Shown here piece after piece: positions 18,404 through 45,712 of a DNA stretch of 64,000 bases. The position numbers and the translations under genes are program-made. Each line of letters starts with the position of its first letter. The first letter of the stretch is position 1. The stretch is taken from positions 17,176,001-17,240,000 of the forward strand of contig CM097885.1 in the NCBI GenBank assembly GCA_044892525.1. The letters run 5' to 3'. Origin of the DNA: Schmidtea polychroa (Eukaryota). The notes below the pieces were generated by a model, which saw nothing but the letters and a program-made list of their open reading frames with translations, made no database searches and had not been told where the DNA came from.

Positions 18404-19349
18404 ACTGGTTCAGTAATGGCTTTTGCAAATCTTATATCCAGTCGTAAATTTCCATTTTGAGGTAATTGACTTTGATTTAAATCAAAATCAGGGGTTAAAA
18501 CAAATGTAATAAATGGGTATTTGCTTTTAAAATCTTCTAGAGTTATTCCGCAATTCAAATTTTTATCTAAATAACCAAGATTTCTAACAATACTCTGCAT
18601 ATATGTCGCACAGTAATTGTCATTCTCGAAATCTTGAATATATGTTTCTCTATAATCAGTATTTTTCGACAAAGTCAATGATGTAACACCAAAGTTTTTG
18701 AAAATTGAGCTGGAAGCAATATATGATCCATTATATTGTGTTTCACTTTGAAATGTTATCAGAATAAAATTAGGCATTCTTCTGTCACCAAATATTTGTT
18801 CTTTATAGAATGATGAAGCACCTTTAGCAATAGCAAATTGTACAATTTCCTTTGTTTTTAATGGATAAATTGCATGTTTTGAATTAAGACCCAATTGATG
18901 ACCTGCTAATACTGAGGGGTCTACTCGAACTTTTCTCACCAATAATTTTGCATCAACTAATTGACATATTGGTGTAGTAGTTGCACTAGTGAGAGATAAT
19001 GCAGAACCAGACCTTTTCAGTCTAATATGTACATTAACTCCCGGTAGTAAATATTTCGGTTGATCCATAAAATCAAGTTGTAATGATGAGCACATGGTGA
19101 AAACCTTTGAGCCTTTTACCCACTTTTTTCTTTTATCATCTGCTGCTGCATAACCTTAATCTGAACAGTCAATAAAGTATCGTTCAAATCTAAATATTCG
19201 GTTTGTGAACCATTAATATAAAACTCGATATCGTTTCTACTATCTGTAATTGAATTCATAGGTAAAACTTCCTCAAATGCCCCAAATTCTATTACAGCCT
19301 GGGGCGATGGTCTATCAAATATACATAATTCGGATTTACCACAAATCAT
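18404..19349 (-). pseudogene. Maverick major capsid protein, internally deleted and 3'-truncated
   Basis: ORFs 19116-19349 and 18367-19095 match the N- and C-terminal parts of 30642-31862. A ~208-bp deletion is bounded by AACC microhomology. Confidence 0.92.
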
Positions 19350-19717
19350 TTTGCAAATATAGTTCCATGTCCTTTCATTCGTTTGTTTATACGTGATATT
19401 CCATGTCTTTTACGTTTTGGAGCATGAGCTGGAGCTGGAGCTGGAGCTGGTTTTTGAAACATACCTGCAACCCCGGGTAAAACTTTCCCTAATTCTGCTA
19501 AAGCATTTGTTTTTAGAGATGGTAATATTTTCTGTTCATTCATAATAACATCTTTTGCAGTTTTCATACCAAAACTACCGATACGTTTAAGAATAGGCAA
19601 TGCAAATCTACCAATTGTTCTCAACCATCCTGATCCGTACTGTTTACCAATAAAATATGGTAAATCACCACCAGATTGGCTACCACTATACATACTAATA
19701 ATATCAGAATTAGCCAT
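19346..19717 (-). CDS. Maverick small core-like precursor (copy 2)
   Basis: Protein identical to 31859-32230. Confidence 0.85.
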   Translation of the reverse strand: MANSDIISMYSGSQSGGDLPYFIGKQYGSGWLRTIGRFALPILKRIGSFGMKTAKDVIMNEQKILPSLKTNALAELGKVLPGVAGMFQKPAPAPAPAHAPKRKRHGISRINKRMKGHGTIFAK

Positions 19718-20040
19718 TTATTTTACGAAAATGTAATGTCAAATGAGTTTTTGGAAATTCGATTAATTGACCAGAATCATAACTTATATTTATTTCTATA
19801 TTGTTTATACAAGATGTTGAAACAGGTAAATACATGGGATTTTCTACATTGATTTGTACAACTTCATCATGATCATGTTTTTCAATCCATATAGATTTCA
19901 TTAAAGAAACACTAAAATCTCCAACAATAACAGGTGCCACGATATTACTGTAAATGAACATTTGCTGATGATGTTTAAGGATTTTCGGTTTGTTTGTTCC
20001 TTCACAAATTTGTTCATTTTGTGTACATATTGGTTTAGAC
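19710..20040 (-). pseudogene. Maverick minor capsid (penton) C-terminal fragment
   Basis: Matches the C-terminus of 32223-33290 with a 9-bp deletion (GSK). The ORF-track N-terminus is hAT TIR sequence. Confidence 0.9.
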
Positions 20041-22555: not shown

Positions 22556-22865
22556 CAAGGTCATTTAAACAAAGACCATGACTCATCAAGGTCATTCTCA
22601 AGGTCGTATGTCTCATACGATGACTCATCAAGGTCATTTTCAAGGTCATATGACTCATCCGATGAGTCATAAAAATTTTCAAGGTCATTTAAACAAAGAC
22701 CATGACTCATTCAAGGCCATTTCCAAGGTCATATGACTCATTCAAGGTCATTCTCAAGGTCATATGACTCATTCAATGTCATTCTCAAGGTCATATGACT
22801 CATACTATGACTCATCAAAATTTTTCAAGGTCATCTGAGTCATCGCGATGAGTCATCAAGGTCAT
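22556..22865. promoter_or_regulatory. Dense array of TCAAGGTCA and TGACTCA motifs in the Maverick terminal region
   Basis: About a dozen (T/C)CAAGGTCA-like and about eleven TGACTCA/TGAGTCA motifs in ~310 bp, plus AACAAAG. Confidence 0.6.
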
Positions 22866-23031
22866 ATTATTATTTTTAAAAATATTATTATTTTTAAAAA
22901 ATATTATTATTTTTAATTTTTTCAAAGTTCCCGTCAACGAAAATTAATAATCGATAGCTCATTTTAAAGCTCAATCCAAGGCCTTTCGAATGAGCCATAT
23001 ATCTTGTTATTAAGATTATTATTTCTAAAGA

Positions 23032-23080
<49 letters not shown>

Positions 23081-30228: not shown

Positions 30229-30614
30229 TTAAACATCAAATTTTTTGTACAATAACCAAGCTAAACAATGTTGACCGCATGTTTGGGTCAAAGGATTTTG
30301 AAACATAGTTTTATTATACACAATAGGTTTTCCCATTGTTTGTAGTTTTGATATCAACAAAGCTGGGTAATAGAAACCCATAGGATCGAACACGAATATA
30401 TTACCAGGTTTCACATATATAGCTATCCAATGTTCTCCACCAAGATGAGACGATTGAGTATTGACGATTATTGCTTGATTATTGCTCAAATATGGAATTT
30501 TATCAAGAGGAAAAACTCCAACAAATTCATTTCCCAATATCTGTTTTCCGATTTTATTGACCTGAACAGAACTATTTTAATAAATTAAACAGTATAAAAA
30601 ACAACTTACTCCAT
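30229..30614 (-). CDS. Adenain-like (C5) cysteine maturation protease, two exons
   Basis: Catalytic motifs GEHW, FDPMG and Q...TCGQHC. ATGGA (30614-30610) plus a 38-nt GTAAGT..TAG intron (30609-30572) gives MDSVQVNKIGKQILGNEFVGVFPLD. Confidence 0.9.
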
Positions 30615-30641
30615 GATAACTTTTTGTGTTTCTGTATACAT

Positions 30642-31862
30642 TTATACCAACACTGTTCTATTTGCAGTAATTTGAACTTCATTTTCAAATACTCCATATA
30701 TTATAACATGTACTGGTTCAGTAATAGCTTTTGCAAACTTTATATCCAGTCGTAAATTTCCATTTTGAGGTAATTGACTTTGATTTAAATCAAAATCAGG
30801 GGCTAAAACAAATGTAAAAAATGGGTATTTGCTTTTAAAATCTTCTAGTGTTATTCCGCAATTCAAATTTTTATCTAAATAACCCAGATTTCTAACAATA
30901 CTCTGCATATATGTCGCGCAGTAATTGTCATTCTCGAAATCTTGAATATATGTTTCTCTATAATCAGTATTTTTCGACAAAGTCAATGATGTAACACCAA
31001 AGTTTTTGAAAATTGAGCTGGACGCAGTATATGATCCATTATATTGTGCTTCACTTTGAAATGTTATCAGAATAAAATTAGGCATTCTTCTGTCACCAAA
31101 TATTTGTTCTTTATAGAATGATGAAGCACCTTTAGCAATAGCAAATTGTACAATTTCCTTTGTTTTTAATGGATAAATTGCATGTTTTGAATTAAGACCC
31201 AATTGATGACCTGCTAATACTGAAGGGTCTACTCGAACTCTTCTCACCAATAATTTTGCATCAACTAATTGACATATTGGTGCAGTAGTTGCACTAGTAA
31301 GAGATAATGCAGAATCAGACCTTTTCAATCTAATATGTACATTAACTCCCGGTAGTAAATATTTCGGTTGATCCATAAAATCAAGTTGTAATGATGAGCA
31401 CATGGTGAAAACCTTTGAGCCTTTTACCCACTTTTTTTTTTCATCATCACTGCCATAACCCATAGGAGTAAGACATGTATTTTTAGTATCGGAATTGTAA
31501 TTTAAAATAGTTTCTATTAATGCCTTGTGAATGAATGTATTATTTCCGCCCTCAATCTTGATATTATTAAATCCCAACACTGCATCTTTAAAAAGAGTAT
31601 GAAACAGGAAATTGTTCGGTATTACATCTGCATTGGCATCCAAAACTTTTCTATCTTTATCTACAACCTTAATCTGAACAGTCAATAAAGTATCGTTCAA
31701 ATCTAAATATTCGGTTTGTGAACCATTAATATAAAACTCGATATCGTTTCTACTATCTGTAATTGAATTCATAGGAAAAACTTCCTCAAATGCCCCAAAT
31801 TCTATTACAGCCTGGGGCGATGGTCTATCAAATATACATAATTCGGATTTACCACAAATCAT
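30642..31862 (-). CDS. Maverick major capsid protein (double jelly-roll, hexon-like)
   Basis: Intact 406 aa with KSELCIF, YLDLNDTLL, NNFLFHTLF, QPKYLLPGV, FVLAPD and GNLRLDIKF. Lies between core-like gene and protease; ATGA overlap with the upstream gene. Confidence 0.9.
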   Translation of the reverse strand: MICGKSELCIFDRPSPQAVIEFGAFEEVFPMNSITDSRNDIEFYINGSQTEYLDLNDTLLTVQIKVVDKDRKVLDANADVIPNNFLFHTLFKDAVLGFNNIKIEGGNNTFIHKALIETILNYNSDTKNTCLTPMGYGSDDEKKKWVKGSKVFTMCSSLQLDFMDQPKYLLPGVNVHIRLKRSDSALSLTSATTAPICQLVDAKLLVRRVRVDPSVLAGHQLGLNSKHAIYPLKTKEIVQFAIAKGASSFYKEQIFGDRRMPNFILITFQSEAQYNGSYTASSSIFKNFGVTSLTLSKNTDYRETYIQDFENDNYCATYMQSIVRNLGYLDKNLNCGITLEDFKSKYPFFTFVLAPDFDLNQSQLPQNGNLRLDIKFAKAITEPVHVIIYGVFENEVQITANRTVLV

Positions 31863-32230
31863 TTTGCAAATATAGTTCCATGTCCTTTCATTCGTTTGTT
31901 TATACGTGATATTCCATGTCTTTTACGTTTTGGAGCATGAGCTGGAGCTGGAGCTGGAGCTGGTTTTTGAAACATACCTGCAACCCCGGGTAAAACTTTC
32001 CCTAATTCTGCTAAAGCATTTGTTTTTAGAGATGGTAATATTTTCTGTTCATTCATAATAACATCTTTTGCAGTTTTCATACCAAAACTACCGATACGTT
32101 TAAGAATAGGCAATGCAAATCTACCAATTGTTCTCAACCATCCTGATCCGTACTGTTTACCAATAAAATATGGTAAATCACCACCAGATTGGCTACCACT
32201 ATACATACTAATAATATCAGAATTAGCCAT
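31859..32230 (-). CDS. Small basic core-like precursor with protease cleavage motifs
   Basis: QSGG|D and QYGSG|W followed by an amphipathic helix and a basic tail KRKRH. Conserved position before the MCP. Confidence 0.75.
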   Translation of the reverse strand: MANSDIISMYSGSQSGGDLPYFIGKQYGSGWLRTIGRFALPILKRIGSFGMKTAKDVIMNEQKILPSLKTNALAELGKVLPGVAGMFQKPAPAPAPAHAPKRKRHGISRINKRMKGHGTIFAK

Positions 32231-33290
32231 TTATTTTACGAAAATGTAATGTCAAATGAGTTTTTGAACCTTTTGGAAATTCGATTAATTGACCAGAATC
32301 ATCTCTTATATTTATTTCTATATTGTTTATACAAGATGTTGAAACAGGTAAATACATGGGATTTTCTACATTGATTTGTACAACTTCATCTTGATCATGT
32401 TTTTCAATCCATATAGATTTCATTAAAGGAACACTAGAATCACCAACAATAACTGGTTCCACGATATTACTGTAAATGAACATTTGCTGATGATGTTTAA
32501 GGATTTTCGGTTTGTTTGTTCCTTCACAAATTTGTTCATTTTGTGTACATACTGGTTTAGTCAATCCTAATGTTTTTGTCAAATTTGAGTCAAATTTAAC
32601 TTGACTAAGATTAGAATTTATACTAAATCTAAATACTTTATCTTTTTGAAGCTCAAAAACTGTTAAAATCTCGCTACAATTGTCACCTAAATAAGTTTGT
32701 AATTGTTCGAGGTCTGTAATATATAAATTATCTTTAAAAGTATATGCATGCTCTGTTATTTCAAAGTATGATAGCTTAAATTTGAATTCCACTAAATTAT
32801 TAGTTTTTGGAAGTGTAGAGAGATTTATTTTGACTGTATCATTAAATACATTACGTAAATCAGTAAATCCAAGACGTTTAGCATCAGCCACTGTAGAAAA
32901 TATAATTTCGAATGGCTTATTCAAGCAATTCATGTATAAATATTGACCATCATCATAAATTATAGGTTTCCTTGATTTCGATGAACTCGTCAAGTTATAA
33001 TTATCTTTATCAATAAGAACACTAATATATTCCGTTACTGCTACTTTCTTATTATATTCAATAACAGATTTGCTATAGATTGGGAATAAATTGTATACAA
33101 ATGTAAAATCCAACAGAGCAACTTCCCAGTCATTATCCAAATAGATGGGGTTTTGGAGTTCGATGATGAATTTGCTTGCTTGATTTTCTGGATGAATTAA
33201 TGGACAACTATTGCTCGGCAAAATAGTATAAAAATTCACTTTACTATGTCTTTTGCTGATATCCATGACGGGTTTTGATAACCATGCCAT
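32223..33290 (-). CDS. Maverick minor capsid protein (penton)
   Basis: FYTILPSNS, WEVAL, FIYSNIVEP.IVGD..VPL, NPMYLPV, IRDDSG..I.F, LHFR. The true start is probably near 33239 (GTG AAT TTT overlapping the integrase stop). Confidence 0.88.
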   Translation of the reverse strand: MAWLSKPVMDISKRHSKVNFYTILPSNSCPLIHPENQASKFIIELQNPIYLDNDWEVALLDFTFVYNLFPIYSKSVIEYNKKVAVTEYISVLIDKDNYNLTSSSKSRKPIIYDDGQYLYMNCLNKPFEIIFSTVADAKRLGFTDLRNVFNDTVKINLSTLPKTNNLVEFKFKLSYFEITEHAYTFKDNLYITDLEQLQTYLGDNCSEILTVFELQKDKVFRFSINSNLSQVKFDSNLTKTLGLTKPVCTQNEQICEGTNKPKILKHHQQMFIYSNIVEPVIVGDSSVPLMKSIWIEKHDQDEVVQINVENPMYLPVSTSCINNIEINIRDDSGQLIEFPKGSKTHLTLHFRKING

Positions 33291-33868
33291 TTGACATAGT
33301 ATTGTTTATCCTTACCGACCATTTTAGTTTTCAATATTTTTTGAATTCTAAATACTTTTGGGGGAGGAATGACTTGTAATTCCTGCTCATAAAATTTCCC
33401 CTGTACAATATTATTATCATTGTCTTTGATGACATACATTACAGGATTCTGTTTAGTATTTATTTTTGAAATTACAAAGACTTCATCACTCCAATTTGTA
33501 TCAAAATTTTTAATAAATGGTGATGCACTAATTTTACTAATTCTAACATGATCACCGACTTTATATTTAGGTTTTGTAATTTTTACAGATTTCTTAGAAG
33601 TCAATGATGTTTTTGATGTAATATCAACCGGTCTCAATCCATTCAGTCCTCGATGTGATGAATGATTATAACTTGTTATTATTTTCGGTAAAGCATTTAC
33701 CCATTTTTTATTACCTTGATGCACGAACAATTTCTTTAATCGATCTCTCAATGTTCGATTAAATCTTTCAACATGGGCAGCTTTGTATTGAGAATGTACC
33801 GAGTAGTGATTTATTTTCAGTTTATCGAGGATTTGCTTAACTTTACTATTGTAGAATTCTTTACGTAA

Positions 33869-33909
<41 letters not shown>

Positions 33910-34294
33910 CCAAATCTGTTTGCAAGTTATTAGGATGTCCATCTTTAAATAAAATATTAATTGCCTTGGACATTTCTTCTGCAGATTTAGCCTTGACTGG
34001 TATTGCTCGTGCAAACCTGCTGTATACATTAATACATGTTAAAATATATTTATTCCCATTGTTAATTTTCGAATAAGGTATCATCTCCATCAAATCCATT
34101 TGCCATAAATCGTCAATACCAAATGTTTTATACGCTCTTGTTGGAAATCTTTTCCGCATCGGTTTGTTCAAACTGTACGCAAGCTGATCTGATAACCACT
34201 TCTGGGTTTCTTTTTTCGAATTCGGAACTCTTTTGTTTTATTTTGCCACTCCACCGAAACCGGCTTCGTCTTCTGGGTTCGTCCAAATCTTCAT
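33236..34294 (-). pseudogene. rve (retroviral-like) integrase with C-terminal chromodomain; premature stop and a probable 45-nt intron
   Basis: The frame starts MKIWTNPEDEAGFGGVAK*NKRV..KWLSDQLAYSLNKP at ATG 34294, with TAA at 34240-34238. Motifs WQMDL, LQTDLG^KEF, VERFNRT and YYVKWHGY. The insert at 33909-33865 is GT...TTTTAC. Confidence 0.9.
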
Positions 34295-34352
34295 TACAAC
34301 AAGAAGATTTAAAATTAAATTTAATGTCGGGCAATGAAGGATTAGCACCCAT
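34128..34352 (-). CDS. Small ORF overprinting the integrase 5' end, with lipidation-like N-terminus
   Basis: MGANPS...SSCC. The ATG lies directly after the stop of the upstream gene. Confidence 0.4.
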   Translation of the reverse strand: MGANPSLPDIKFNFKSSCCNEDLDEPRRRSRFRWSGKIKQKSSEFEKRNPEVVIRSACVQFEQTDAEKISNKSV

Positions 34353-34355
34353 TGT

Positions 34356-34888
34356 TTATGATTGATTTCCTACAACTCCACCTAATAATGATAATGCCAG
34401 AGGTATCAATGCACCAATAAATCCACCTTGTTGTTTATATATAATTTTCCTCATTTGCTTACGATTTTTATTATTTACTAAAGATAACAATGGTTTCCTA
34501 TGTTTGCTCAATAATTGCTTTTTTGATTTACTGATTTTAATTTTGCCTTTGACTACTTTAAGTATAATATTGAGTAAATCATCGACAACAAAATTTGGGA
34601 ATGATTGCAATATATTCATTCTTTTCATACTCGGGGCCTTTAACAATGCATTAAAAAATGGAAAACTGCGATGATTTTTAACTACTTTTTTACTGGTTTT
34701 ATGGGTTTTACGTTTTTACGTTTAGGTTTAGGATTTTTCGAAATAAGATTCATTGCAGAAAAATTTTCAGTTACAAGATTTTTAGATGGTGTATAACTAG
34801 TTGTTGGTGGAATCTTTGGAACTTTAATACTCTTTCTAATACTTTTTCTTAATTTCCTAATATTTTTCACCCTTGCTTTTAGAAACAT
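34356..34888 (-). CDS. Basic core-like protein ending in QQGG|F plus a hydrophobic tail; two ORFs, possibly one frameshifted gene
   Basis: 34356-34646 ends QQGGFIGALIPLALSLLGG. Its frame is open upstream to ~34714, where a 1-nt shift in an A run would join it to Lys/Arg-rich ORF 34682-34888. Confidence 0.65.
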
Positions 34889-34906
34889 TATTATTCATAG
34901 AGGTTT

Positions 34907-35533
34907 TCAACTTTGTTTATAAACCATGGCACCTTTTGGGTTGAAAATATCTGTTTTTACTCGTAAATCATCGGGGCATTGTTGTGTGAAATCAAGAAAT
35001 ATATATCCATGAGGTATTTTTGTAGCATCTTGAAATGCACTGATAAGAAAATTACGATTGTTAGGGTATGCTTGACGTGCAAGAAAATCAATCACTGTTG
35101 CATCTCTAGGATTCTTGAAAATAACTAAATATTGTACATTTAAATTACGTGTTCGATGTGCCCCACCTTGATGAAATAGATTTTGTGTTATGAAAATAAC
35201 TGTTACACCGACATGTCTGCTGATCTTTGTAAATAAATTATTAAAATCTTTTTCTTTATTAGCTTCTTGATACAAATCATCAATAATAATGACATCACCC
35301 TTCTTTAATCGGCTGGACCAGTTTTTATCAAATCCCTTTACTATTTTCATGTTTTTTAATTTACAGAAACTTGATTGAGTTAATCCATGTTCTTCATCAG
35401 CACCCCTATGCCAATAAATCCTGTTGAATTTTGATTTGAATAAATTGGATTTTAGTAATTTACAAACAAATAATGTTTTTCCACTACCACTCGGACCAAC
35501 GATTTGGTATACTGCATCATTTCTTAATTCCAT
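34907..35533 (-). CDS. A32/FtsK-like genome packaging ATPase
   Basis: Walker A GPSGSGKT, Walker B IIIDD, SRH..VTVIFITQNLF, FKNPRD and PHGYIFLD. Confidence 0.93.
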   Translation of the reverse strand: MELRNDAVYQIVGPSGSGKTLFVCKLLKSNLFKSKFNRIYWHRGADEEHGLTQSSFCKLKNMKIVKGFDKNWSSRLKKGDVIIIDDLYQEANKEKDFNNLFTKISRHVGVTVIFITQNLFHQGGAHRTRNLNVQYLVIFKNPRDATVIDFLARQAYPNNRNFLISAFQDATKIPHGYIFLDFTQQCPDDLRVKTDIFNPKGAMVYKQS

Positions 35534-35594
35534 TTCAAAGATTTTATAAATGTGTATTTGTTTATATTCGATGATTTAATGAACTCGTGCTCAA

Positions 35595-35606
35595 TTTATA
35601 TATAAA
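35595..35606. promoter_or_regulatory. Palindromic TATA box in the divergent ATPase/TBP intergenic region
   Basis: TTTATATATAAA is self-complementary and sits in the 99-bp gap between the two start codons. Confidence 0.5.
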
Positions 35607-35632
35607 GACTAATTTTCATAAATGATTTAATA

Positions 35633-36070
35633 ATGTTAGCAAATATAAATTATCGAGGAAATTTTGATGTATCGAATATGAGGTTCCCACCAGGGAAACC
35701 CCAGCAAATTATCGATAGAAGTGGGAAATATCCGATAATATTTTTCAAGACTGGTAAATGCAGAATCATGGGATGTAAGAAACCTTTGGATATTAATAAA
35801 TTACAATATCGAATAAATAATATTACAATCCAATCAATTACCGTTACTATGGATATGGGAAATAGTATCAATCTATATAACATGTCGAAAAAATGTGATT
35901 GTATGTTTGAACCGGAATTGTTTCCGGCACTAAGACTATTAAAATATAACCCTATATGTGTCAACGTGTTTGCTAGTGGAAAGGTTGTCATGCTGGGGTT
36001 GAGAAATTTGGAGTATAGAGAATTTGTTGACAATGTTCGAAATGAGATAATTTCATTGGTCGATTTCTAA
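35633..36070 (+). CDS. TATA-binding protein (TBP)-like protein encoded within the Maverick
   Basis: Repeat 2 ITIQSIT...INL...FEPELFPAL...VNVFASGKVVMLG compares with TBP FKIQNMV...IRL...YEPELFPGL...LLIFVSGKVVLTG. Repeat 1 IIFFKTGKCRIMG compares with ALIFSSGKMVCTG. Intact 145 aa. Confidence 0.88.
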   Translation: MLANINYRGNFDVSNMRFPPGKPQQIIDRSGKYPIIFFKTGKCRIMGCKKPLDINKLQYRINNITIQSITVTMDMGNSINLYNMSKKCDCMFEPELFPALRLLKYNPICVNVFASGKVVMLGLRNLEYREFVDNVRNEIISLVDF

Positions 36071-36144
36071 TTGGTTAATTTCTAATTGGTTATTGATTGA
36101 TTTAAACAAACGGTTTTTTGTTTAGGATTCATTTTTTCAACACC

Positions 36145-36564
36145 ATGTACAAATTACCAAGCGCTGCAAACCTCATGAAAGATATCGACGATTATGGTAA
36201 ATTTTAATTTTTTTTATTTTCACATTATTTACTATTTATTATTTTAGAAAAATATTTAGAAGTTATGATCAATAGGATAAAATATTATTATCCTCAAATT
36301 ATTGAAATTATCAAGGATCGAGAAGCAGAAATAATTCCGGACCTCATTTTCTACACAACTCAAATTAGAATAATGTTGGTATTTCACCAGTTCTTGTGGT
36401 ATATAAAGATAAACAGAACCATCAAACAAATGGAGCCGGAGTACCAGTGCATCATCGGATGCTCATGCTGTGCCGATCGATATCGGCGATATGTCGAATG
36501 GGAGTTAGTGAAAACTCTGAGAAGGTTTCACTACTCCCGGATTGTAGATTTAGGTTACCAATAA
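36145..36564 (+). CDS. Hypothetical Maverick accessory protein, two exons
   Basis: Kozak-like caccATG at 36145. A 51-nt GTAAAT..TTTTAG intron (36197-36247) joins in frame: MYKLPSAANLMKDIDDYEKYLEVMINR...CIIGCSCC. AATAAA overlaps the stop. Confidence 0.7.
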
Positions 36565-36649
36565 ATGTATTTTTATTGTGTTTTATCTTTTTTATATTTG
36601 AAATAATAATAGTAATAATAATAATAATAATAGAAATAGTAATAATAAA

Positions 36650-36688
<39 letters not shown>

Positions 36689-36927
36689 GAAATAATAAAA
36701 CATTAATAATAAAAAATTAATAATAATAATAATAGAAATAATAAAACATTAATAATAATAAAACATTAATAATAAAACATTAATAAAAATAATAGAACAT
36801 GTGACAATGCAACATCAATGCATTTTGAATGCAATTTAAACAAAGACATGCTATAATCTGATTGGTTGATAGGCATGAGTCAAAGGTATAAAAACCCTGT
36901 AACATTTAAATTTATTCATTATTCACG

Positions 36928-37590
36928 ATGACCAAGAAAATTTCAAGCACCGAAAAACCTAAAGAAATGGTACAACCAGTTCAAATGTTCCACAACTACA
37001 AAATGTATTTTTTGTAAGAAGAAATCAATATGAAATTGGTTGCACCAGTCAAGCTAATTCCAACTAAATTTCAATTCTTATCCGGCACGCTTTCAATGAT
37101 TGATGTCAAAACTATTGATGATGTTTTTAAACGGATAGATTCGAATCTATCGTGTAATCAACATGCATGGTTCAACAATAGATATGCAAGATTTTATGAT
37201 GCTTTTGATGAAATCAGTTTCAAAGAAAATGAATTTATGCTAAATGCAATTCAACAAAGTACTATTGCATTTCATTTGAGATAACTTTTGGAAGGAAAAT
37301 TAACTTGTGTTTGACGTTAGAACAAGCGTCGGAATCCTGTTAAGGCGTAAATTTGACGAGAAAACACAAAGCAAAGTAAGCTGCAATAAGAAAAAAGAAG
37401 TAACAAACAATTTAATTTGGTGAAAGCGTTTGTGAGGAAAGAACTTAAAATATGGATAAAAATCATTTGAAATCATAAAATTTATTTCTCCGCGCCAAGT
37501 GAACCTTCAAAAAAGAAATATTCGGAAACTGGGAAGTATTGAATGCCTGAAGAAGTAGCATAAGTTTTAAAGGAAGGAGAGTTATATTTG
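36928..37590 (+). pseudogene. Degraded hypothetical Maverick accessory gene
   Basis: TATAAAA at 36887 and a reverse CCAAT upstream. ATG 36928 is in frame with ORF 37030-37284 across TAA at 37015. Further stops follow; the 3' end is approximate. Confidence 0.45.
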
Positions 37591-38509: not shown

Positions 38510-41500
38510 TTATTCACAAAATCTTATTTCATTTCTTAGACTTTCTTGGTAAAGTAAATCGTTTCGAGCGTCTCTCAATTGATAATGTTTATTTCCTCTG
38601 CAAACCTCTTCATTGAATTTGTCTCTTACAACTTTGCGCGGTATTTCTGGTCTATCAGGAAGAATTCTCTGCTGATTTCTTGGCAGTTGAGAATTCCACT
38701 GAATCCATTTTTCTCGGCAGATGTTCTCATGGATTCCAATGGAATGTCTTGTGAAATACCTTCCACAAATGTAACAAACAATTCCTGGCATTGAGCCAAG
38801 TGGTTTTCTATTTGACTCTTTTAGAGCTTCCTCGCATTCTTCATAATTGCTTATGATAAGCTGCTTTTGAGTTCCATTGCACCATTTTTGGTGTTCGTCG
38901 ACTCTTTGTTTAGGAATCCATTTTTGGCACATATTACAACAGAAATTGATAAAGTCTTCTTGGAAATTTGTTTGCAAGGATAAATTTTTCATAATTTCCT
39001 GCATTGGAATATCAACACAGTTCGATGTTTTTACTATACTTGGAATAAACGGTTTATATTTGATATGGTAACACTTCAGGAGGATATCAACCAGTTCGAT
39101 GAATAGGGTATTCATCACAGCATCGTTTACCAAAAAGTCCACTCTATCACTTAACATAGTATTCAATGTTTCTTTAGTTTCCTTTACCGTGGGGATCTTA
39201 AATCCAGATAGTTCATTAAATCTATCATTTTTATTCGATTTGTCTGAATCCTCTGGACATTTTAATTCAGAATTTCCTCCCTTCCCTTTATTATCACATG
39301 TCTCATGGCATTTGCAATTACACGTATCTTTACATTTGTTTCTCCCTTTATTTTTGCAATCGCAAATGCAGGAATCTTTACAGGTGCAATGTTCTTTTTC
39401 CTTGCATGCACATGGGCAAGTTTTATTAGTTCCTTTATCAGCTGCCTTATTTTTTTCTAAACAAGGACACTGGCATTTGTCACTATCTTTATCTTTATTT
39501 TTGTCTTTATCTTTATCATTATCTTTATCTTCTTTTTTATCTTTTTTTCCAGTTTCATTGTCTTCATCCATACATTTTACAACAGGTATTTTTGTTGATA
39601 AGCTTCTATCTAGTCGTCCAAATGATTTACATTTAATGGAGACATCAATTGATGGAACTTTTCCTTTGCCCGTTTCACTTGGTGGACATCCATAAACTAA
39701 ATCTTGATCCATGTGAGTAATTACCGGGGAGTCACATATAACATTTTCAGTTTCAGGATTGCTGTACAACATATCATTTTCATTTTTTGGAACTATTTCT
39801 GAAGTAGCACTTGTGGTTTCTTTATAATTAATGTCTACACTATCCTTGTCCTCTCTAATCACCAAGCGAGAATTAAAACTGCTTACAGCTTTATCGGTAC
39901 TTGCTTCATTTATGTCGTTATAAGATCCTTCTTCATAAGGTAAATCTATTTCACGCTGATTGAATGAAACAGCTTTTAATTCTTTTGAAGGCCCTCCTTT
40001 ACCGGTTGGATCTTTCAAATCTTTTTCTAATATTTTCTCTCCTCGTCGTTTATTTTCGTCTACAACTGCTTTTACTGATTGATATGGTAAATATATAACT
40101 TTGTTCATGATTTCAATTATTTCGGTTTCATCCGGTAATTGAAGTGATAATTTATGACCCTCGCGTCTACTCTTAGGGTGATTAGCTTCAATAGACTCTT
40201 CGGGATTATCATTTAGCATTTGCCTATTTGTTAAGTATTCCATATCGAATCGCTTATATGCAGAAGGAAATTCATACTTATGATAGTCTTCATAGATGTG
40301 AGGCTCGTTAAGCTTAACTTCTCCATGATATTTATGAGGAATTCCTTCCCATGGTGAATCGCCATACTGAGGTTTTGAATACCTTTTATCTCCTTTTATC
40401 TTAGCAGGAGATTTACTGTCTGGAGATTTTTTAGGTGCATCTTGAAACGCTTTTTGTGGTTTAGTGGTTTTCATAGTATCATAGGTTGTACCTTCACTTT
40501 CGATCTTTGGAGCGGGTTTTACATTCTCAAATATCTGTTTAGGTATTTTTCTTTCACTTTCGATCTTTGGAGCGGGTTTTACATTCTCAAATCTCTGTTT
40601 AGGTATTTTTCTTTGACAACACTTCGATGGACCCAATTGATCACTATCTGCTCGTCGAAAATCCTTTTGGTTGCGATACTTTGGATCATCACTTTCAATT
40701 TGTTGAATAGTTTTCAAACTGTCATATTTTGACCGTGGAGACTTTCTCTGACAACAACTAGATGGGTTTTCACTTTGGGTTCGAGGTTGACTTCTATAAT
40801 GCTTTGAATCGTCACTTTCTATACTCTGTATGGGTTTTAAACTATCATAATTTGGGTTAATAGGTCTTTTTTGGCAACATTTTGACGGTCCACCTTTATT
40901 TCTCTTAAATTTGGGTTTGTCAGTTTTCTCCAGTGTATCTAAGTCGTCATAATGAGATTTGGGAGATTTCCGTTGACAGCATCTTGTAGTATCACCTTGA
41001 GCCGATGGTTTGGTATTCTTTTGTGGTTCATAATTATATTTGGGGGGTTTATAGCTGTCTTTCACAGTTGTCTTTCTGCAGCATTTAAACAAACAAGTAC
41101 TATTCTTTCTCGATTGTGGGAAATCTTGAATGTTTTTACTTTTCTTTACAGATGAAAATCTGCGTATACTTCTATCGTCTGTCCTAACTGATACTTTTGA
41201 ACAACATTTTGAAGACGTCTTTTCAGAGGAATCTATCGGTTTTATTTCTTTTATTTTATCAAAATCAACTTGATATGTAGATTCTTCCTTATCCCCAAAG
41301 CTTTCAACTACATTTTCTGTTTCATATTTCTCTCTCTTATCTTCCTGAATTGTTTTGATTGGGGTTTTTGATTTCTCCTTTTTGCGACACTTATAAGGAA
41401 TACATATGCAAGATGACTTGTTAGAATTGGTTGACTTTTTAATTTCTTGTTTAACCTGTTTTTTTGGAACAGGAGTTGGAATTTTATCACTTTCATCTAC

Positions 41501-44500
41501 TATATATGGTGTTATAATAGGGGTGCTATGATGGACTGATTCCGGTTGGGGTTTAGTATTTTTGAAAGATCTTCTTGGTAAATAATATTTTGGTTGAGAA
41601 CTAGGTGTTGATATAGGTGCATGATCTTCAAATGTTTCATAGGTTATTCTAGGAGGTGGAGGAGGTGGTGGTGGAGGAGGAGGGGGAGGTGGAGGAGGGG
41701 GAAATGATTCTTTAAGGAGTACAACACTTTCTTCCCTTTCTAATTCAATCTTTTGATATGGGGTTGGAATTTTTAAAGAATCTTTAGATTCCTTTTTGAA
41801 AATGGATAATTCAATAAATTCATATATATCCGGTTCATTTTCTATAGACTGAATTGGAGTGCTTGTGACTGGATGCATAGGCCGAATACTAGCTTCTTTT
41901 TGTAAGGAAAGTGGATCACGAATAGGTTGGTAATCTTCATGAAAGTCCCTTATTTCAGATATTGATTTTGAGGGGTGAAAACACGCAGAAAAGCACATTC
42001 CTTTTTTGCTGTCTTTCCTTTGATTAGGTTTCCGTTCATTGTATTCAAAGTTTTTATACATATTTATTGTGTTATCCTTTTTATTAAGGTTTTCAAGCTT
42101 TCTCATTTCGTTTTGAAGTATCATTTCGCTCATTTCGGTTTCAAAATACATTTCCGCTTCAAATACAATGGTGTCTTCTTTTTGTTCTTCTATAATGTCA
42201 TCGATATCAGAACTAATGTAAGAAATTGGTTTTTCAGTTGGAGGACCCCATAATTTAGACTGCCTAAAGCCTTCAGTACTTATTTTCTTTTCAGGTGGAC
42301 GCTGAATTTTCTTTTTCTTAACTTTATTTGTTCTCATACCTTGACCAATGCTGTTATCTTTCTTCGATGGAGGATCGTCACCTCTTTTAGGCATATTTCC
42401 TTTCAAATCTTCTTCAATAAAATATTGTTTAGTCGGTTCTTGATCTGCAATGTTTATGCATTTTTCTTTAATGGATTTGTTTGAAAACCTTTCTGGTATT
42501 CGTAATATTTCCGGTTTAACGTCTGCGATGAAAGTTTCTTCGAATTTAGGAAAAGGCTTAATTTCATTAAATGTTTGATTATAGACGGCTGGCTGTTCCA
42601 TTTTAACAGTTGGTGGAAGTTGTACTCTGCAGTCAGCTATGTTCAAAGATTTACATTCAACTCCAGTTGGAGCTGTTGGTCCAAATCTTTCGGCAATTCT
42701 TAACGGTGGGTGCTCATTTTCAAATTGCTGATGAATGATTGATTCTTTAACAGGAATGATTTTCACATCAAAACTATTTTTTGATGAGTCTTTTTTGTCA
42801 GATTTTTTGTTTAAATTATCCCACTGTTGGATTTCGATTTCCACCAGTTCAACTAATTCCTTTTTCAATCTATCATCAATTTCTTTAGTGTTTAAAGGAA
42901 TCTTTTCTCTATTTTCTAAACTCGAACCAGACGCTTTGCTTTTTATTAAGTCAGCTGAATCGGATTTTCTATCTCTTTGACCGTCCATCGAAGATTTAAG
43001 TCCGATTCTTTTGTTTTGAATGTCATATTTTATTGACCTTTCTTCAATATTTGATCCTTTTGGTTCTTGTTCATTGACAAATGTTACTGTCTTTAATATT
43101 TGAACACTGTCCTTCGATGGAACATCATTACTATCATTACTTCTCCTATTATTTGGATAACTTATTTCTTCTTTTATACTTTTCGCTCCTTGCAAAGTAT
43201 CTAACATGGATTCTTTATTATCAATAATTTTCGATAATTCTTTTTTAATTTTCTCTCTAACCTGACTTTGAGGAACTTGGTTTTCCAAAGAATCAATTTT
43301 CTTTGAAGAAGACCTTTTAATTTTACCCAGGCTGTCTGATCGCTCGATTATAAATTCTCTTTTTATGGAATCTGAATTCGGTTGTGATCCTTTTTGGCGA
43401 ATTTCTTGAATTGAAATAACTGACTCATTTTTTGCTTGCTCGAAAGATGGATTGCTTCTAAATTGTGGTATCTTTTTATTGTTATCTGTGATAGCACATG
43501 ATTCGACTTTCATCTGGACAGATATCTGACTATCTTGACTACTCGAACTCAGTATGGATGTCGAAATTACTGGTCCAGATTTCTGGACTTCTATCACTCT
43601 ACTTCTTGTACCATCGGAAACTGCGGATGTTGAAATTACTGGTCCAACATTAACTAGGGATTTCTGGACTTCTATCACTCTATTTCTTGTACCATCAGAA
43701 CTTATCCTCACCCTTTCACTGCTGTCGTGTGAAATAACTTTTGCTGGTTCTATCGTTTGTTCTTCCTTTACGTCATTATCCTTTCCATCTAAACGGATTC
43801 GAATATTTATTTCATCTTCCGAACCAAGATGAATTACATCAAAATCTTCATCTTTGGATGAAATATAATTGTAATCCTTTGTAAATAAAACAGTCTCTGG
43901 TTCTTTAATAGTAATATTCTCATTTTGAAATGTGATTTTATCCGTTTTAATTTGGTCGCTATATCGCTTGGTCATTTTGATTTCATTTGGTGGTCTGCTT
44001 TCAATCTCTTTGATTCGAATATTCTCGTTCTCGAAGATAACCTTTTCCGCTTTCAAAGAATCGGTATGTTGTCGATTTACTTTGATATCTCTCGGTGGTT
44101 TGCTTTCAGTTTTAAGGTTTTCACTCAGAAACACGATTTTATCTGTCTTGATGGAATCACTATTTTGTTTATTTGTTTTTGAGACTTTTGGTGATTTGCT
44201 ATCCGCTTCTTTGATTTTGATTTGGATGTTTTGTTTCAATTTGTCGTCCTCATAAATGTTCATGTCTAATATATTTTCACTAGCTGCTGGTGATTTTTGA
44301 ATATTTGAACCTTTCATTGCTTCCGTTGAGATAATGTCCCAATTCTTTTGATAATTGCGATCAAAGGTTTCTACATTCGACAATTTCATATTGATACTTT
44401 CCGCTTTGATTCCAGAGGACCTTTTGCCGGATCGAGTCGTGAAAAGTTTTTCTTCGATTTTTTTCATTATAATCTTGTGAAGAGGTAACGATTTAGTTGC

Positions 44501-45712
44501 ATCTTTTGGTCTTGCTGTCGTTTCAATTTTTTCGAATTTTATATCGACTTTAGGATCGTAATAGTTTTCGCAATCGGGATCATAGATTTTTGTCGTCGTC
44601 ATGTATTCCTCTTCAATCCTCTTTTGTGGATCTTCACCATCTTGATAACTTCGATGAATCGGAGTGTGGGTTTCAAGTCTGGTTCTGATTTCAGACCCAT
44701 CAGAAATGTAAACTGTTTCTTCACCGCGGTTTATTGTAGTTTCGATTTTCTCAGCATAACCTTTTTCCTTCAGTTTTCCTAACTTTACTTCATATTTAAT
44801 AACTTCTCTGTTAGCCAAAGCTTGATGAAGTTTTTGATTAAAGATTAAGTCCAACTGATTTTCGGATCTTTCAAAATCTGTCTCAACAAACATTGACTCA
44901 GACGATCTAGCATTTTTATTCTTTTCAAAATGGCCATCACTCACTATTTTCAAGTTTTCGAGATAATCAAAGTAACTTGATAACCTTTTATTGTCCTCTA
45001 ATGCTTCGTTATGTGACTGTTTACGTTTGACTCGAGGTTTTAGTGGCTTTGGTGAGGTATTAATTAGAAAATCAGATTTCTTTTCCATTAGTTGTCCAAA
45101 GTAATTATGTATGCACCCTCTGTTTGAAGTCTGTATACTAATATCTTTCTCTTCAACATTAATCATACCATGAAATGAATCTTTAGAGCAATTCGAAAAT
45201 GGGATCAAACTTTCTTTTCTTTTAGAGATTCTTTCATTTTTTACAACTCTTTGAGTTTCACGAGACCCAGACACCGAAAATTGAGATTCAACAACACATG
45301 AGAATCTATTCTCTTCATTTTGATCATCGTTAGTTGTCCTTTTACTGAATAGAATAGAATTGTAAGTTACTTTACTATCATTATTGTCATTTACCATCAT
45401 AACATTTGAATTGGAAGTTGTAAAGTTTATGAAATCACCACCATGATCGGGTACAATGAGGTTTAAAGGTCTTATAGGAGCTTTGGATTTACTTTTTGTA
45501 TATAGGTTAAATTCTTGGTCGATCTTGTTAATGATATCAAACATATTTTGGTTACCTTCGGAGACAACGCGTTTATCATTGTACTGACTTTCGTATTTCA
45601 TATGAAGAGAGTTCTTCCACATTTTCATTTGGCGAATAAAGCGTTTTTTACCACATCGGTATTTGTAAGAGTTATTATTACTATTGTTATTTTTCTTTCG
45701 ATATATAATCAT
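38510..45712 (-). CDS. 2400-aa host protein, largely low-complexity, with C-terminal C2HC zinc fingers (ZNF474-like), a Cys-rich segment and a polyproline tract
   Basis: 7.2-kb uninterrupted ORF in AT-rich DNA. CNMC..HQKWC and VCYICGRYFTRHSIGIHENICREKW. Confidence 0.85.
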   Translation of the reverse strand: MIIYRKKNNNSNNNSYKYRCGKKRFIRQMKMWKNSLHMKYESQYNDKRVVSEGNQNMFDIINKIDQEFNLYTKSKSKAPIRPLNLIVPDHGGDFINFTTSNSNVMMVNDNNDSKVTYNSILFSKRTTNDDQNEENRFSCVVESQFSVSGSRETQRVVKNERISKRKESLIPFSNCSKDSFHGMINVEEKDISIQTSNRGCIHNYFGQLMEKKSDFLINTSPKPLKPRVKRKQSHNEALEDNKRLSSYFDYLENLKIVSDGHFEKNKNARSSESMFVETDFERSENQLDLIFNQKLHQALANREVIKYEVKLGKLKEKGYAEKIETTINRGEETVYISDGSEIRTRLETHTPIHRSYQDGEDPQKRIEEEYMTTTKIYDPDCENYYDPKVDIKFEKIETTARPKDATKSLPLHKIIMKKIEEKLFTTRSGKRSSGIKAESINMKLSNVETFDRNYQKNWDIISTEAMKGSNIQKSPAASENILDMNIYEDDKLKQNIQIKIKEADSKSPKVSKTNKQNSDSIKTDKIVFLSENLKTESKPPRDIKVNRQHTDSLKAEKVIFENENIRIKEIESRPPNEIKMTKRYSDQIKTDKITFQNENITIKEPETVLFTKDYNYISSKDEDFDVIHLGSEDEINIRIRLDGKDNDVKEEQTIEPAKVISHDSSERVRISSDGTRNRVIEVQKSLVNVGPVISTSAVSDGTRSRVIEVQKSGPVISTSILSSSSQDSQISVQMKVESCAITDNNKKIPQFRSNPSFEQAKNESVISIQEIRQKGSQPNSDSIKREFIIERSDSLGKIKRSSSKKIDSLENQVPQSQVREKIKKELSKIIDNKESMLDTLQGAKSIKEEISYPNNRRSNDSNDVPSKDSVQILKTVTFVNEQEPKGSNIEERSIKYDIQNKRIGLKSSMDGQRDRKSDSADLIKSKASGSSLENREKIPLNTKEIDDRLKKELVELVEIEIQQWDNLNKKSDKKDSSKNSFDVKIIPVKESIIHQQFENEHPPLRIAERFGPTAPTGVECKSLNIADCRVQLPPTVKMEQPAVYNQTFNEIKPFPKFEETFIADVKPEILRIPERFSNKSIKEKCINIADQEPTKQYFIEEDLKGNMPKRGDDPPSKKDNSIGQGMRTNKVKKKKIQRPPEKKISTEGFRQSKLWGPPTEKPISYISSDIDDIIEEQKEDTIVFEAEMYFETEMSEMILQNEMRKLENLNKKDNTINMYKNFEYNERKPNQRKDSKKGMCFSACFHPSKSISEIRDFHEDYQPIRDPLSLQKEASIRPMHPVTSTPIQSIENEPDIYEFIELSIFKKESKDSLKIPTPYQKIELEREESVVLLKESFPPPPPPPPPPPPPPPPPRITYETFEDHAPISTPSSQPKYYLPRRSFKNTKPQPESVHHSTPIITPYIVDESDKIPTPVPKKQVKQEIKKSTNSNKSSCICIPYKCRKKEKSKTPIKTIQEDKREKYETENVVESFGDKEESTYQVDFDKIKEIKPIDSSEKTSSKCCSKVSVRTDDRSIRRFSSVKKSKNIQDFPQSRKNSTCLFKCCRKTTVKDSYKPPKYNYEPQKNTKPSAQGDTTRCCQRKSPKSHYDDLDTLEKTDKPKFKRNKGGPSKCCQKRPINPNYDSLKPIQSIESDDSKHYRSQPRTQSENPSSCCQRKSPRSKYDSLKTIQQIESDDPKYRNQKDFRRADSDQLGPSKCCQRKIPKQRFENVKPAPKIESERKIPKQIFENVKPAPKIESEGTTYDTMKTTKPQKAFQDAPKKSPDSKSPAKIKGDKRYSKPQYGDSPWEGIPHKYHGEVKLNEPHIYEDYHKYEFPSAYKRFDMEYLTNRQMLNDNPEESIEANHPKSRREGHKLSLQLPDETEIIEIMNKVIYLPYQSVKAVVDENKRRGEKILEKDLKDPTGKGGPSKELKAVSFNQREIDLPYEEGSYNDINEASTDKAVSSFNSRLVIREDKDSVDINYKETTSATSEIVPKNENDMLYSNPETENVICDSPVITHMDQDLVYGCPPSETGKGKVPSIDVSIKCKSFGRLDRSLSTKIPVVKCMDEDNETGKKDKKEDKDNDKDKDKNKDKDSDKCQCPCLEKNKAADKGTNKTCPCACKEKEHCTCKDSCICDCKNKGRNKCKDTCNCKCHETCDNKGKGGNSELKCPEDSDKSNKNDRFNELSGFKIPTVKETKETLNTMLSDRVDFLVNDAVMNTLFIELVDILLKCYHIKYKPFIPSIVKTSNCVDIPMQEIMKNLSLQTNFQEDFINFCCNMCQKWIPKQRVDEHQKWCNGTQKQLIISNYEECEEALKESNRKPLGSMPGIVCYICGRYFTRHSIGIHENICREKWIQWNSQLPRNQQRILPDRPEIPRKVVRDKFNEEVCRGNKHYQLRDARNDLLYQESLRNEIRFCE

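Follow-up and report, generated by a model that had tools for sequence, protein, structure and literature searches.

A conserved, helix-trimmed TATA-binding protein of a Maverick/Polinton lineage and a candidate promoter motif for its virion genes

A 64,000-nucleotide stretch of the Schmidtea polychroa genome (GenBank assembly GCA_044892525.1, contig CM097885.1, positions 17,176,001 to 17,240,000 of the forward strand; here called the window) contains a copy of a Maverick/Polinton (adintovirus-like) element, which encodes a family-B DNA polymerase (PolB), an rve integrase, an A32-type packaging ATPase, a double jelly-roll major capsid protein (MCP), and an adenain-like protease. Beside the ATPase gene lies a gene for a viral TATA-binding protein (vTBP), the subject of this work. 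The two genes are divergent and are separated by a spacer of 99 bp. The features at this junction, in window coordinates, are as follows.

35633..36070, plus strand: vTBP gene, an uninterrupted ATG..TAA frame of 145 codons (145 amino acids, aa) with a helix-less N-lobe and a full C-lobe carrying EPELFPA and FASGK
35597..35607, plus strand: canonical TATA box, TATATATAAAG, at -36..-26 of the vTBP ATG
34907..35533, minus strand: packaging ATPase, A32/FtsK-type, 208 aa, intact (30.3 bits with Pox_A32, whose cut-off is 22.8; 71-76% identity to its closest relatives)
35559..35565, minus strand: ATAAACA motif, a class II promoter-like element 26-32 nt upstream of the ATPase ATG

The open reading frame (ORF) at 35633..36070 is a true TBP homologue. 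The Pfam TBP family, PF00352, matches it in 2 stretches with 55 bits (cut-off 22.9, E=7.5e-15), and five relatives of vTBP score 56.7-65.2 bits. A phmmer search of the PDB returned 35 distinct sequences, every one a TBP or a TBP fusion construct, with the M. jannaschii TBP at the top (3e-10). The AlphaFold2 model, built from a family alignment of 44 sequences, has a mean predicted local distance difference test score (pLDDT) of 95.1 and a predicted template modelling score (pTM) of 0.84. When this model was compared with the PDB by Foldseek, all 44 of the 44 matches at E<=1e-3 were TBPs, spanning about 170 columns with TMq 0.66-0.77, that is, whole TBP cores. Because Pfam, phmmer, AlphaFold2, and Foldseek all point to TBP, the homology goes beyond a chance likeness of motifs. 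vTBP is about 23% identical to the host TBP over a lobe, and only about 90 residues can be aligned with cellular and giant-virus TBPs, at about 20% identity. A preliminary description, made from the sequence alone, had proposed that this Maverick/Polinton encodes its own TBP in an intact 145-aa ORF next to the packaging ATPase; both the gene and its neighbour are as described, and the motifs quoted there (IIFFKTGK, FEPELFPAL, and VFASGKVV) are all present in the translation.

The anatomy of vTBP was read from its model and from an alignment of vTBP and family members with the host TBP exon and three ORFs of host TBP paralogues; invariance was scored over the 44 family sequences. In the model, vTBP is predicted to form two tandem lobes that share one curved beta-sheet saddle. 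The C-lobe (about residues 59-145) is complete, with S1', H1', four strands, and a long H2': it follows the order S1-H1-S2-S3-S4-S5-H2 and carries its two helices on the convex face. The N-lobe (residues 1-58) departs from this order, as the model shows four strands without any helix over residues 2-48. Against the host TBPs, repeat 1 has a gap of 11 residues at helix H1 and one of 13 at helix H2, and both helices are deleted in all 11 of the family members aligned. The strands themselves are retained, among them S1 (ANINYRG, against RNIVCTV in the host) and those around IIFFKTGKCRIMGCK. There is no N-terminal tail, so that the protein measures 145 aa against about 180 for a TBP core. The shortened first repeat and the missing N-terminal extension had both been noted in the preliminary description.

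Three of the four canonical intercalating Phe, F38, F97, and F113, are invariant in the family, as the preliminary description had surmised for the window protein; the fourth position, the first Phe of repeat 1, is I27, a variable hydrophobic residue in the family. Thus, both DNA-kinking Phe of the C-lobe are kept and the N-lobe keeps one. The S1 Asn of the N-lobe (N6) is invariant, and its C-lobe equivalent is Ser (S68) in the family. E93 and E95, the glutamates of the acidic EPE stirrup that had also been singled out earlier, are invariant across the 44 sequences. In cellular TBP, according to Ravarani et al. 2020 (PMC7221094), TFIIB is contacted by the C-lobe glutamates at positions C.L3.2 and C.L3.4, and helix 2 of the N-lobe presents a positively charged patch for TFIIA, TAF1, Brf1/2, Mot1, and NC2. 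Lacking its N-lobe helices, vTBP is predicted from its model to lack the surface that these five sets of partners use on cellular TBP.

vTBP is not a peculiarity of one element, as the preliminary description would have it, but a conserved gene of one whole Maverick/Polinton (adintovirus-like) lineage, under purifying selection. A word-indexed protein search found at least 108 clusters of relatives, 38-97% identical and 96-232 aa long, all with a Pfam TBP domain. In a profile search of 1.84 billion representatives of a 50%-clustered library, the number of matches was 3178 at E<=1e-3, a figure that takes in cellular TBPs, and fell to 640 at <=1e-10 and to 59 at <=1e-30; nearly all of the top 150 are short, single-stretch matches that cover the whole profile. 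A scan of metagenomes confirmed 176 of 364 candidate stretches, of which 80 loci were kept. When the Maverick proteins of the window were compared with these 80 TBP loci by tblastn, the ATPase was found in 28, the integrase in 17, the MCP in 12, an ORF of 355 aa described below in 12, and PolB in 8. All of the relatives were retrieved via TBP itself, and most contigs without further Maverick genes are only 1-3 kb long; where contigs suffice, the company of the TBP gene is always Maverick genes, down to about 33% identity in PolB and 26-27% in MCP. Gene order varies by lineage, with TBP and ATPase on the same strand, divergent (as in the window), TBP following the capsid gene, or the order PolB-TBP-ATPase. 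The TBP ORF is intact in 70 of the 80 loci, and the ratio of non-synonymous to synonymous substitution rates (dN/dS) is 0.05-0.45 in all 51 pairs with usable divergence; for the ATPase it is 0-0.17 in 10 pairs. vTBP is very probably a functional DNA-binding TBP homologue of the virus. In IMG/VR, no MCP relative turned up among 191 pattern matches, and the one TBP relative there, distant at 25% identity, lies on a contig of 44.7 kb. A more distant Maverick lineage (L084:3994-4395, L093:9086-9484, and L098:771-1211) has, just upstream of its TBP gene, a gene resembling a parvovirus-type phospholipase A2 (PF08398, 42-52 bits); C2H2 zinc-finger ORFs lie between its ATPase and integrase.

The remaining features of the window copy, from the vTBP side outward, are these.

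36928..37233, plus strand: accessory ORF, the 5' part of an ORF of 132-135 aa, cut at the end of the copy; a canonical TATAAAAA box lies upstream
34356..34628, minus strand: conserved small ORF, 90 aa, hydrophobic at its C-terminus, present in 9 of the 80 loci
33236..34291, minus strand: integrase, rve plus chromodomain, with one in-frame stop (34238-34240) and an in-frame poly-Ile run within the core domain
32223..33290, minus strand: conserved virion-module ORF, 355 aa, no family match, found in 12 of the 80 loci
31859..32230, minus strand: small basic ORF, 123 aa, whose 3' end encodes S-I-N-K across the ATAAACA motif ahead of the capsid gene
30642..31862, minus strand: MCP, double jelly-roll, 406 aa, intact, identified by structural model and alignment
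30229..30576, minus strand: adenain-like cysteine protease frame, 115 open codons, with no ATG at its head in the window copy; 42% identity to relative L063
23825..27094, minus strand: protein-primed PolB, ORF of 941 aa, its homologous N-terminal stretch broken by in-frame stops at 27047 and 26942
22556..23078, no strand: tandem-repeat array, which recurs inverted at the far end of complete copies and is probably the left terminal inverted repeat
31897..31903, minus strand: ATAAACA motif ahead of the capsid gene, 35-41 nt upstream of its ATG
Starts at 27708, 29820, 32324, 33303, 34353, 34432, and 34914, minus strand: further ATAAACA copies from a motif scan

Several of these assignments lean on relatives. 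The window integrase scores 25.6 bits with rve, below the cut-off of 32.6, and 21.9 with Chromo; relatives at 35-66% identity reach 48-57 bits with rve and up to 35 with Chromo. The Pfam scan of the window ORFs gave no PF03175 match for the PolB ORF itself; its relatives, 47-51% identical to it, match this family at 77-98 bits. The protease of L063 matches Peptidase_C5 at 32.2 bits against a cut-off of 21.3. For the MCP, whose model has a pLDDT of 77.3, VIA-align gave Z 25.0 with the MCP of Paramecium bursaria Chlorella virus 1 (PBCV-1; 348 residues aligned, root-mean-square deviation (rmsd) 3.8), 21.6 with Sputnik (356 residues, rmsd 4.3), 19.9 with mavirus (337 residues, rmsd 3.9), and 13.7 with the adenovirus hexon (320 residues, rmsd 4.3). 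Neither 11 ORFs of the window nor 75 from relatives and sister copies gave a TFIIB match in Pfam.

The copy in the window is incomplete and interrupted by stops. As the preliminary description had observed, PolB and integrase carry stops while TBP is intact; the integrase frame has one stop (34238) and the PolB frame two (27047 and 26942), and at these places all other copies that cover them have a sense codon (27 copies at the integrase stop, 1 at both PolB stops). The copy is also cut on its right side, because homology to sister copies stops at 37233 in 4 of the 4 compared, and 3 of these run on for about 2.7-2.9 kb, through the 132-135-aa ORF, an ORF of 103 aa, a membrane-type ORF of 166 aa, and a tandem-repeat array. 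This far-end array is an inverted copy of window 22556-23078; the termini are AT-rich tandem repeats. Between the ends of the window copy, no terminal inverted repeat was detected (none by blastn of the two halves; 17 nt only by local alignment), because of the truncation at 37233.

The subfamily is present in this genome at about 950 copies. A 30-nt word of the ATPase-TBP spacer occurs 951 times in the 781-Mb assembly with up to two mismatches allowed, and the reversed control 0 times. A protein search of the same assembly scored 150 places out of 4166 first-look candidates, all of them 98-100% identical, full-length, and stop-free. Among 30 copies drawn in genome order from the spacer search, and thus not chosen for the integrity of their ORFs, TBP is intact in 26 and ATPase in 13. 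Differences from the window copy, summed by hand and not independent of one another, come to 73 changed residues per 139 nt differences for TBP (25 copies) and 12 per 94 for ATPase (12 copies). A Pfam TBP scan of the genome found the canonical host TBP, several paralogues, and many more TBP-like open frames. More than 100 of these further frames are 163-236 aa long and score about 50-55 bits with PF00352, the frame of the window family being 154 aa; probably, TBP versions of their own are encoded by other Maverick subfamilies here.

Two classes of promoter-like sequence can be distinguished in the element, one before the TBP and accessory genes and the other before the virion module. In the window, the word (T)ATAAACA precedes the ATPase, integrase, 355-aa, 123-aa, and capsid genes. 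Over the module, ATAAACA occurs 9 times on the coding (minus) strand and once on the plus strand, with a Markov expectation of 4-5. The motif, TATAAACA, is found in the forward orientation only, about 35 nt ahead of the ATG of virion, packaging, and integrase genes. Counts of ATAAAC[AG] upstream of the ATG in de-replicated relatives, which are related sequences and so do not give independent counts, are listed here.

ATPase, -50..0: 22 of 25 relatives
ATPase, -100..0: 24 of 25 relatives
Capsid (MCP), -100..0: 7 of 7 relatives
123-aa ORF, -100..0: 5 of 6 relatives
90-aa ORF, -50..0: 5 of 9 relatives
355-aa ORF, -50..0: 4 of 7 relatives
TBP, -50..0: 0 of 59
TBP, -100..0: 3 of 59

ATAAAC[AG] has a background density of 0.56 per kb on each strand; for the ATPase, the binomial P, again from related sequences, is 1e-31. 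On the reverse strand, the upstream windows of the five module genes contained none; over all bins there was one module-gene match, in the capsid row and downstream of the ATG. The flanks of the motif are not conserved, a T precedes the core in 35 of 46 cases, and the motif most often stands 31-38 nt from the ATG. Ahead of the capsid gene the motif lies within the upstream coding sequence, where it is read as S-I-N-K/R; the codons used are ATA-AAC in 7 of 7 sequences, against a joint frequency of 0.088 expected from codon usage. This constant codon choice points to a constraint on the DNA itself.

The other class is made up of host-type elements. Three right-end accessory genes in the family of this genome have a CCAAT box followed by TATAAA(A/T)(A/G). 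In sister copy L156, the 103-aa ORF (7611-7922, minus strand) and the 166-aa ORF (8028-8528, plus strand) are divergent, each behind CCAAT and TATA. TATAAACA differs from canonical TATAWAWR at one position, the canonical form set against it being TATAAAAG. The regions upstream of PolB in three relatives, whose true starts are uncertain, contain neither motif.

These observations suggest a mechanism in which vTBP, expressed early, binds host TFIIB but lacks the surface for host regulators, and drives late promoters via TATAAACA. To this reading a probability of roughly 55% is given. Since the element has no RNA polymerase or TFIIB of its own, vTBP would have to work with the RNA polymerase II (Pol II) machinery of the host. 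Placed on a TATA-like element, it would bring in TFIIB and Pol II from the host through the conserved stirrup of its C-lobe; it would be neither built into TFIID nor evicted by the host regulators Mot1 and NC2. Its likely target would be the forward-only (T)ATAAACA ahead of the packaging, integrase, and virion genes, and the vTBP gene and the accessory genes would be served by ordinary promoters of the CCAAT and canonical TATA type. The canonical promoter of the vTBP gene itself suggests an early-to-late cascade, in which host TBP switches on vTBP and vTBP then switches on the late module. If vTBP takes the orientation known for cellular TBP on its box, the 3' half of the box, where the sequence is altered, would lie opposite the altered N-lobe. 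The preliminary description had put forward the redirection of Pol II to late promoters; the two promoter classes lend this indirect support, and the mechanism by which it would occur is conjectural.

A wider joint reading is tentative and falls somewhat short of an even chance. It would see here an orthogonal Pol II promoter code in an integrating lineage of animal viruses, in which a regulator-blind TBP of 145 aa, trimmed of its N-lobe helices but with the TFIIB stirrup kept, is made from a host-type CCAAT/TATA promoter and reads TATAAACA about 35 nt before each late gene. The resulting early-to-late switch would bypass TFIID, TFIIA, NC2, and Mot1, and among natural TBPs able to nucleate a pre-initiation complex of Pol II, vTBP would be the smallest.

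Several points weigh against the proposal that vTBP drives late genes through TATAAACA. Classical TATA binding is not assured, because I27 replaces a Phe and the S1 Asn of the C-lobe is Ser. The "early" class is not uniform: canonical TATAWAWR is present at -60..-20 in only 19 of 59 TBP genes, and 8 of those 19, thus only 8 of 59, also have CCAAT. The motif counts, as said, come from related sequences. ATAAACA also fits RYAAAYA, the consensus for forkhead factors, so that a host factor could read it. Finally, the differences among TBP copies change an amino acid more often than those among ATPase copies, suggesting weaker constraint or diversification within the recent burst.

The alternative that survives best, an unlikely one, takes up this forkhead match. 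A host factor, either of the forkhead type or host TBP itself, would read TATAAACA, vTBP would serve other promoters or a Pol III or other function, and the link between gene and motif would be a coincidence of inheritance. In its favour, the motif lies only one position from the canonical TATAWAWR, and what ties it to vTBP here is co-occurrence in sequence. However, the motif occurs in forward orientation only and keeps a constant spacing of about 35 nt to the ATG, which is the behaviour of a core promoter and not of an enhancer, and motif and vTBP gene occur together across lineages whose MCPs are only 26-27% identical.

It is quite improbable that vTBP is a decoy for host shut-off, which would occupy host TATA boxes or titrate TFIIB unproductively and so damp the transcription of the host or of rival elements. 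The loss of the N-lobe helices, which support TFIIA and TFIID contacts according to PMC7221094, together with the retention of the DNA-facing residues, is what such a protein might look like. The invariant glutamates at the TFIIB contact fit recruitment as well as titration, and a decoy leaves unexplained why an oriented, position-fixed TATAAACA stands before viral genes and is absent from the TBP gene.

The odds are longer still for vTBP as an architectural protein, whose saddle would bend AT-rich viral DNA at the termini, the origin, or the packaging site and so aid protein-primed replication, packaging, or integration, with no role in transcription. The frequent position of its gene beside that of the packaging ATPase (28 of 80 loci) and the AT-rich tandem repeats of the termini would suit this role, as would the occurrence of lobe-like TBP folds in replication initiators, to which the vTBP model has weak Foldseek matches (RepD-type proteins, E 0.018-0.09). 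Yet the position of the gene shifts by lineage, being beside the ATPase, after MCP, or after PolB; the conserved TFIIB stirrup residues E93 and E95 would have no obvious use; and the significant structural matches, 44 of 44, are transcription TBPs. Nothing beyond membership in the same family speaks for a recent processed copy of host TBP, or a host TBP pseudogene, that was caught in a transposon and has no function; such an origin is ruled out by the low identity to the host lobe (about 23%), the 59 representatives at E<=1e-30, the dN/dS of 0.05-0.45, the spread over Maverick lineages with PolB at about 33% identity, and the ORF intact in 26 of 30 copies.

Several further observations concern the element and its surroundings. 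The integrase ORF (33236-34159, minus strand) has 13 Ile codons in frame at about residues 85-98, beside the T-D-x-G motif of the rve core, and this run looks like a microsatellite expansion. The 166-aa ORF of the sister copies has an N-terminus resembling a signal peptide and a hydrophobic C-terminus; the stretch KWTRILVGFAY in the 103-aa ORF is reminiscent of the BH1 motif of Bcl-2. Neither ORF has a significant match in Pfam. A second, partial Maverick fragment at window 18404-19994 is 89-94% identical to the capsid and 123-aa ORF region (30598-32510) of sister copies, and about 1.3 kb past the cut end of the element there is a single open frame of 2400 aa (38510-45712, minus strand) with low-complexity repeats and Cys-rich C-terminal motifs. 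When window 30600-37300 was compared with contigs of a run labelled as a different species, pieces of the element with very few differences (for example, 3 in 481 nt) were found; these could reflect a sister species, contamination, or horizontal transfer. Contigs of uncertain kind from four sequencing runs span all 6.7 kb of this part of the window. The same genome also contains at least 13 intronless frames of 301-310 aa that match the TFIIB cyclin-repeat family PF00382 at 37.9-43.7 bits, in clustered arrays at C1:23.85-24.19 Mb and C3:38.2-39.1 Mb. This amplified TFIIB-like gene could be a partner of the viral TBPs or a counter-measure to them.

vTBP shares with the cellular proteins TBP, TRF, and TBPL the two-lobe saddle, the motifs EPE(L/I)FP and F-x-SGK, the helices of the C-lobe, and the Asn in S1 of the N-lobe. 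It differs from them in its size, the loss of the N-lobe helices, the unconserved first Phe of the N-lobe, the Ser in S1 of the C-lobe, the missing N-terminal tail, and its presence on a virus in hundreds of copies. TBP homologues are established in giant viruses, and the best matches of vTBP in BFVD are TBP-like proteins of giant and large DNA viruses (phycodnaviruses, mimivirids, asfarviruses, iridoviruses, and ascoviruses; E 5.7e-8 to 1e-3, TMq 0.5-0.78), which share a viral TBP fold with it and are 186-842 aa long and 8-20% identical to it. PMC7221094 describes giant-virus TBPs as diverged at both interfaces, varied at the TFIIB-contact positions, and mostly accompanied by a TFIIB of their own, and it proposes that they evade host regulators through the diverged N-lobe. 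Unlike the proteins described there, vTBP has invariant contact glutamates, and no TFIIB was found in the element ORFs scanned.

The closest parallel in proposed logic is found in beta- and gamma-herpesviruses, in which, according to PMC7498053 and PMC12529657, a TBP mimic on a variant TATA box drives late genes via host Pol II. As far as these sources describe them, the mimics (ORF24 of KSHV (Kaposi's sarcoma-associated herpesvirus), BcRF1 of Epstein-Barr virus (EBV), and UL87 of human cytomegalovirus (HCMV)) would have in common with vTBP a nuclear DNA virus without its own polymerase, a private TBP, and a non-canonical TATA. They differ in being large (the matching BFVD entries have 577-1005 aa) and in having no TBP similarity at the level of Pfam. 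The fold matches of vTBP to herpesvirus proteins in BFVD are weak (U58, E 2.3e-3; BcRF1, E 1.3e-2), and the likeness is best taken as a functional analogy and not as membership.

The preliminary description had also raised the question of earlier reports, and here the answer is divided. That viruses of the Polinton type can have a TBP gene is not entirely without precedent, as the legend to Fig. 5 of Starrett et al. 2021 (PMC8502044) gives "TBP" as a gene label for MELD viruses with adintovirus-like PolB, in a section on non-animal datasets. This label is a legend abbreviation only; in its accessible part, the text gives no analysis of sequence, structure, distribution, or promoters. A literature match on TBP genes in mirusvirus-like elements proved unrelated to a Polinton TBP. 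In the openly available articles that were searched, neither a study of a Polinton TBP nor one of a promoter motif of animal Mavericks was found. Four things appear to be new: an architecture with a helix-free N-lobe, how large and how conserved the family is, its constant tie to a Maverick clade, and a candidate for the cognate promoter.

To our knowledge, the mode of gene expression in Mavericks/Polintons and adintoviruses is not known; they lack an RNA polymerase, and no transcription factor is known from them. With a conserved private TBP and a conserved, strictly positioned motif, there is a concrete, testable model for how Maverick genes may be regulated and reactivated. vTBP may also be viewed as a natural deletion experiment on TBP, in which the DNA saddle and the TFIIB-contact residues have been kept and the surface for host regulators removed. 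It thus speaks to how much of TBP initiation needs, and it could yield a compact, orthogonal part for transcription. For the organism itself, about 950 near-identical copies in a genome of 781 Mb mean hundreds of intact TBP-like ORFs, which, if they are expressed, could interfere with host transcription.

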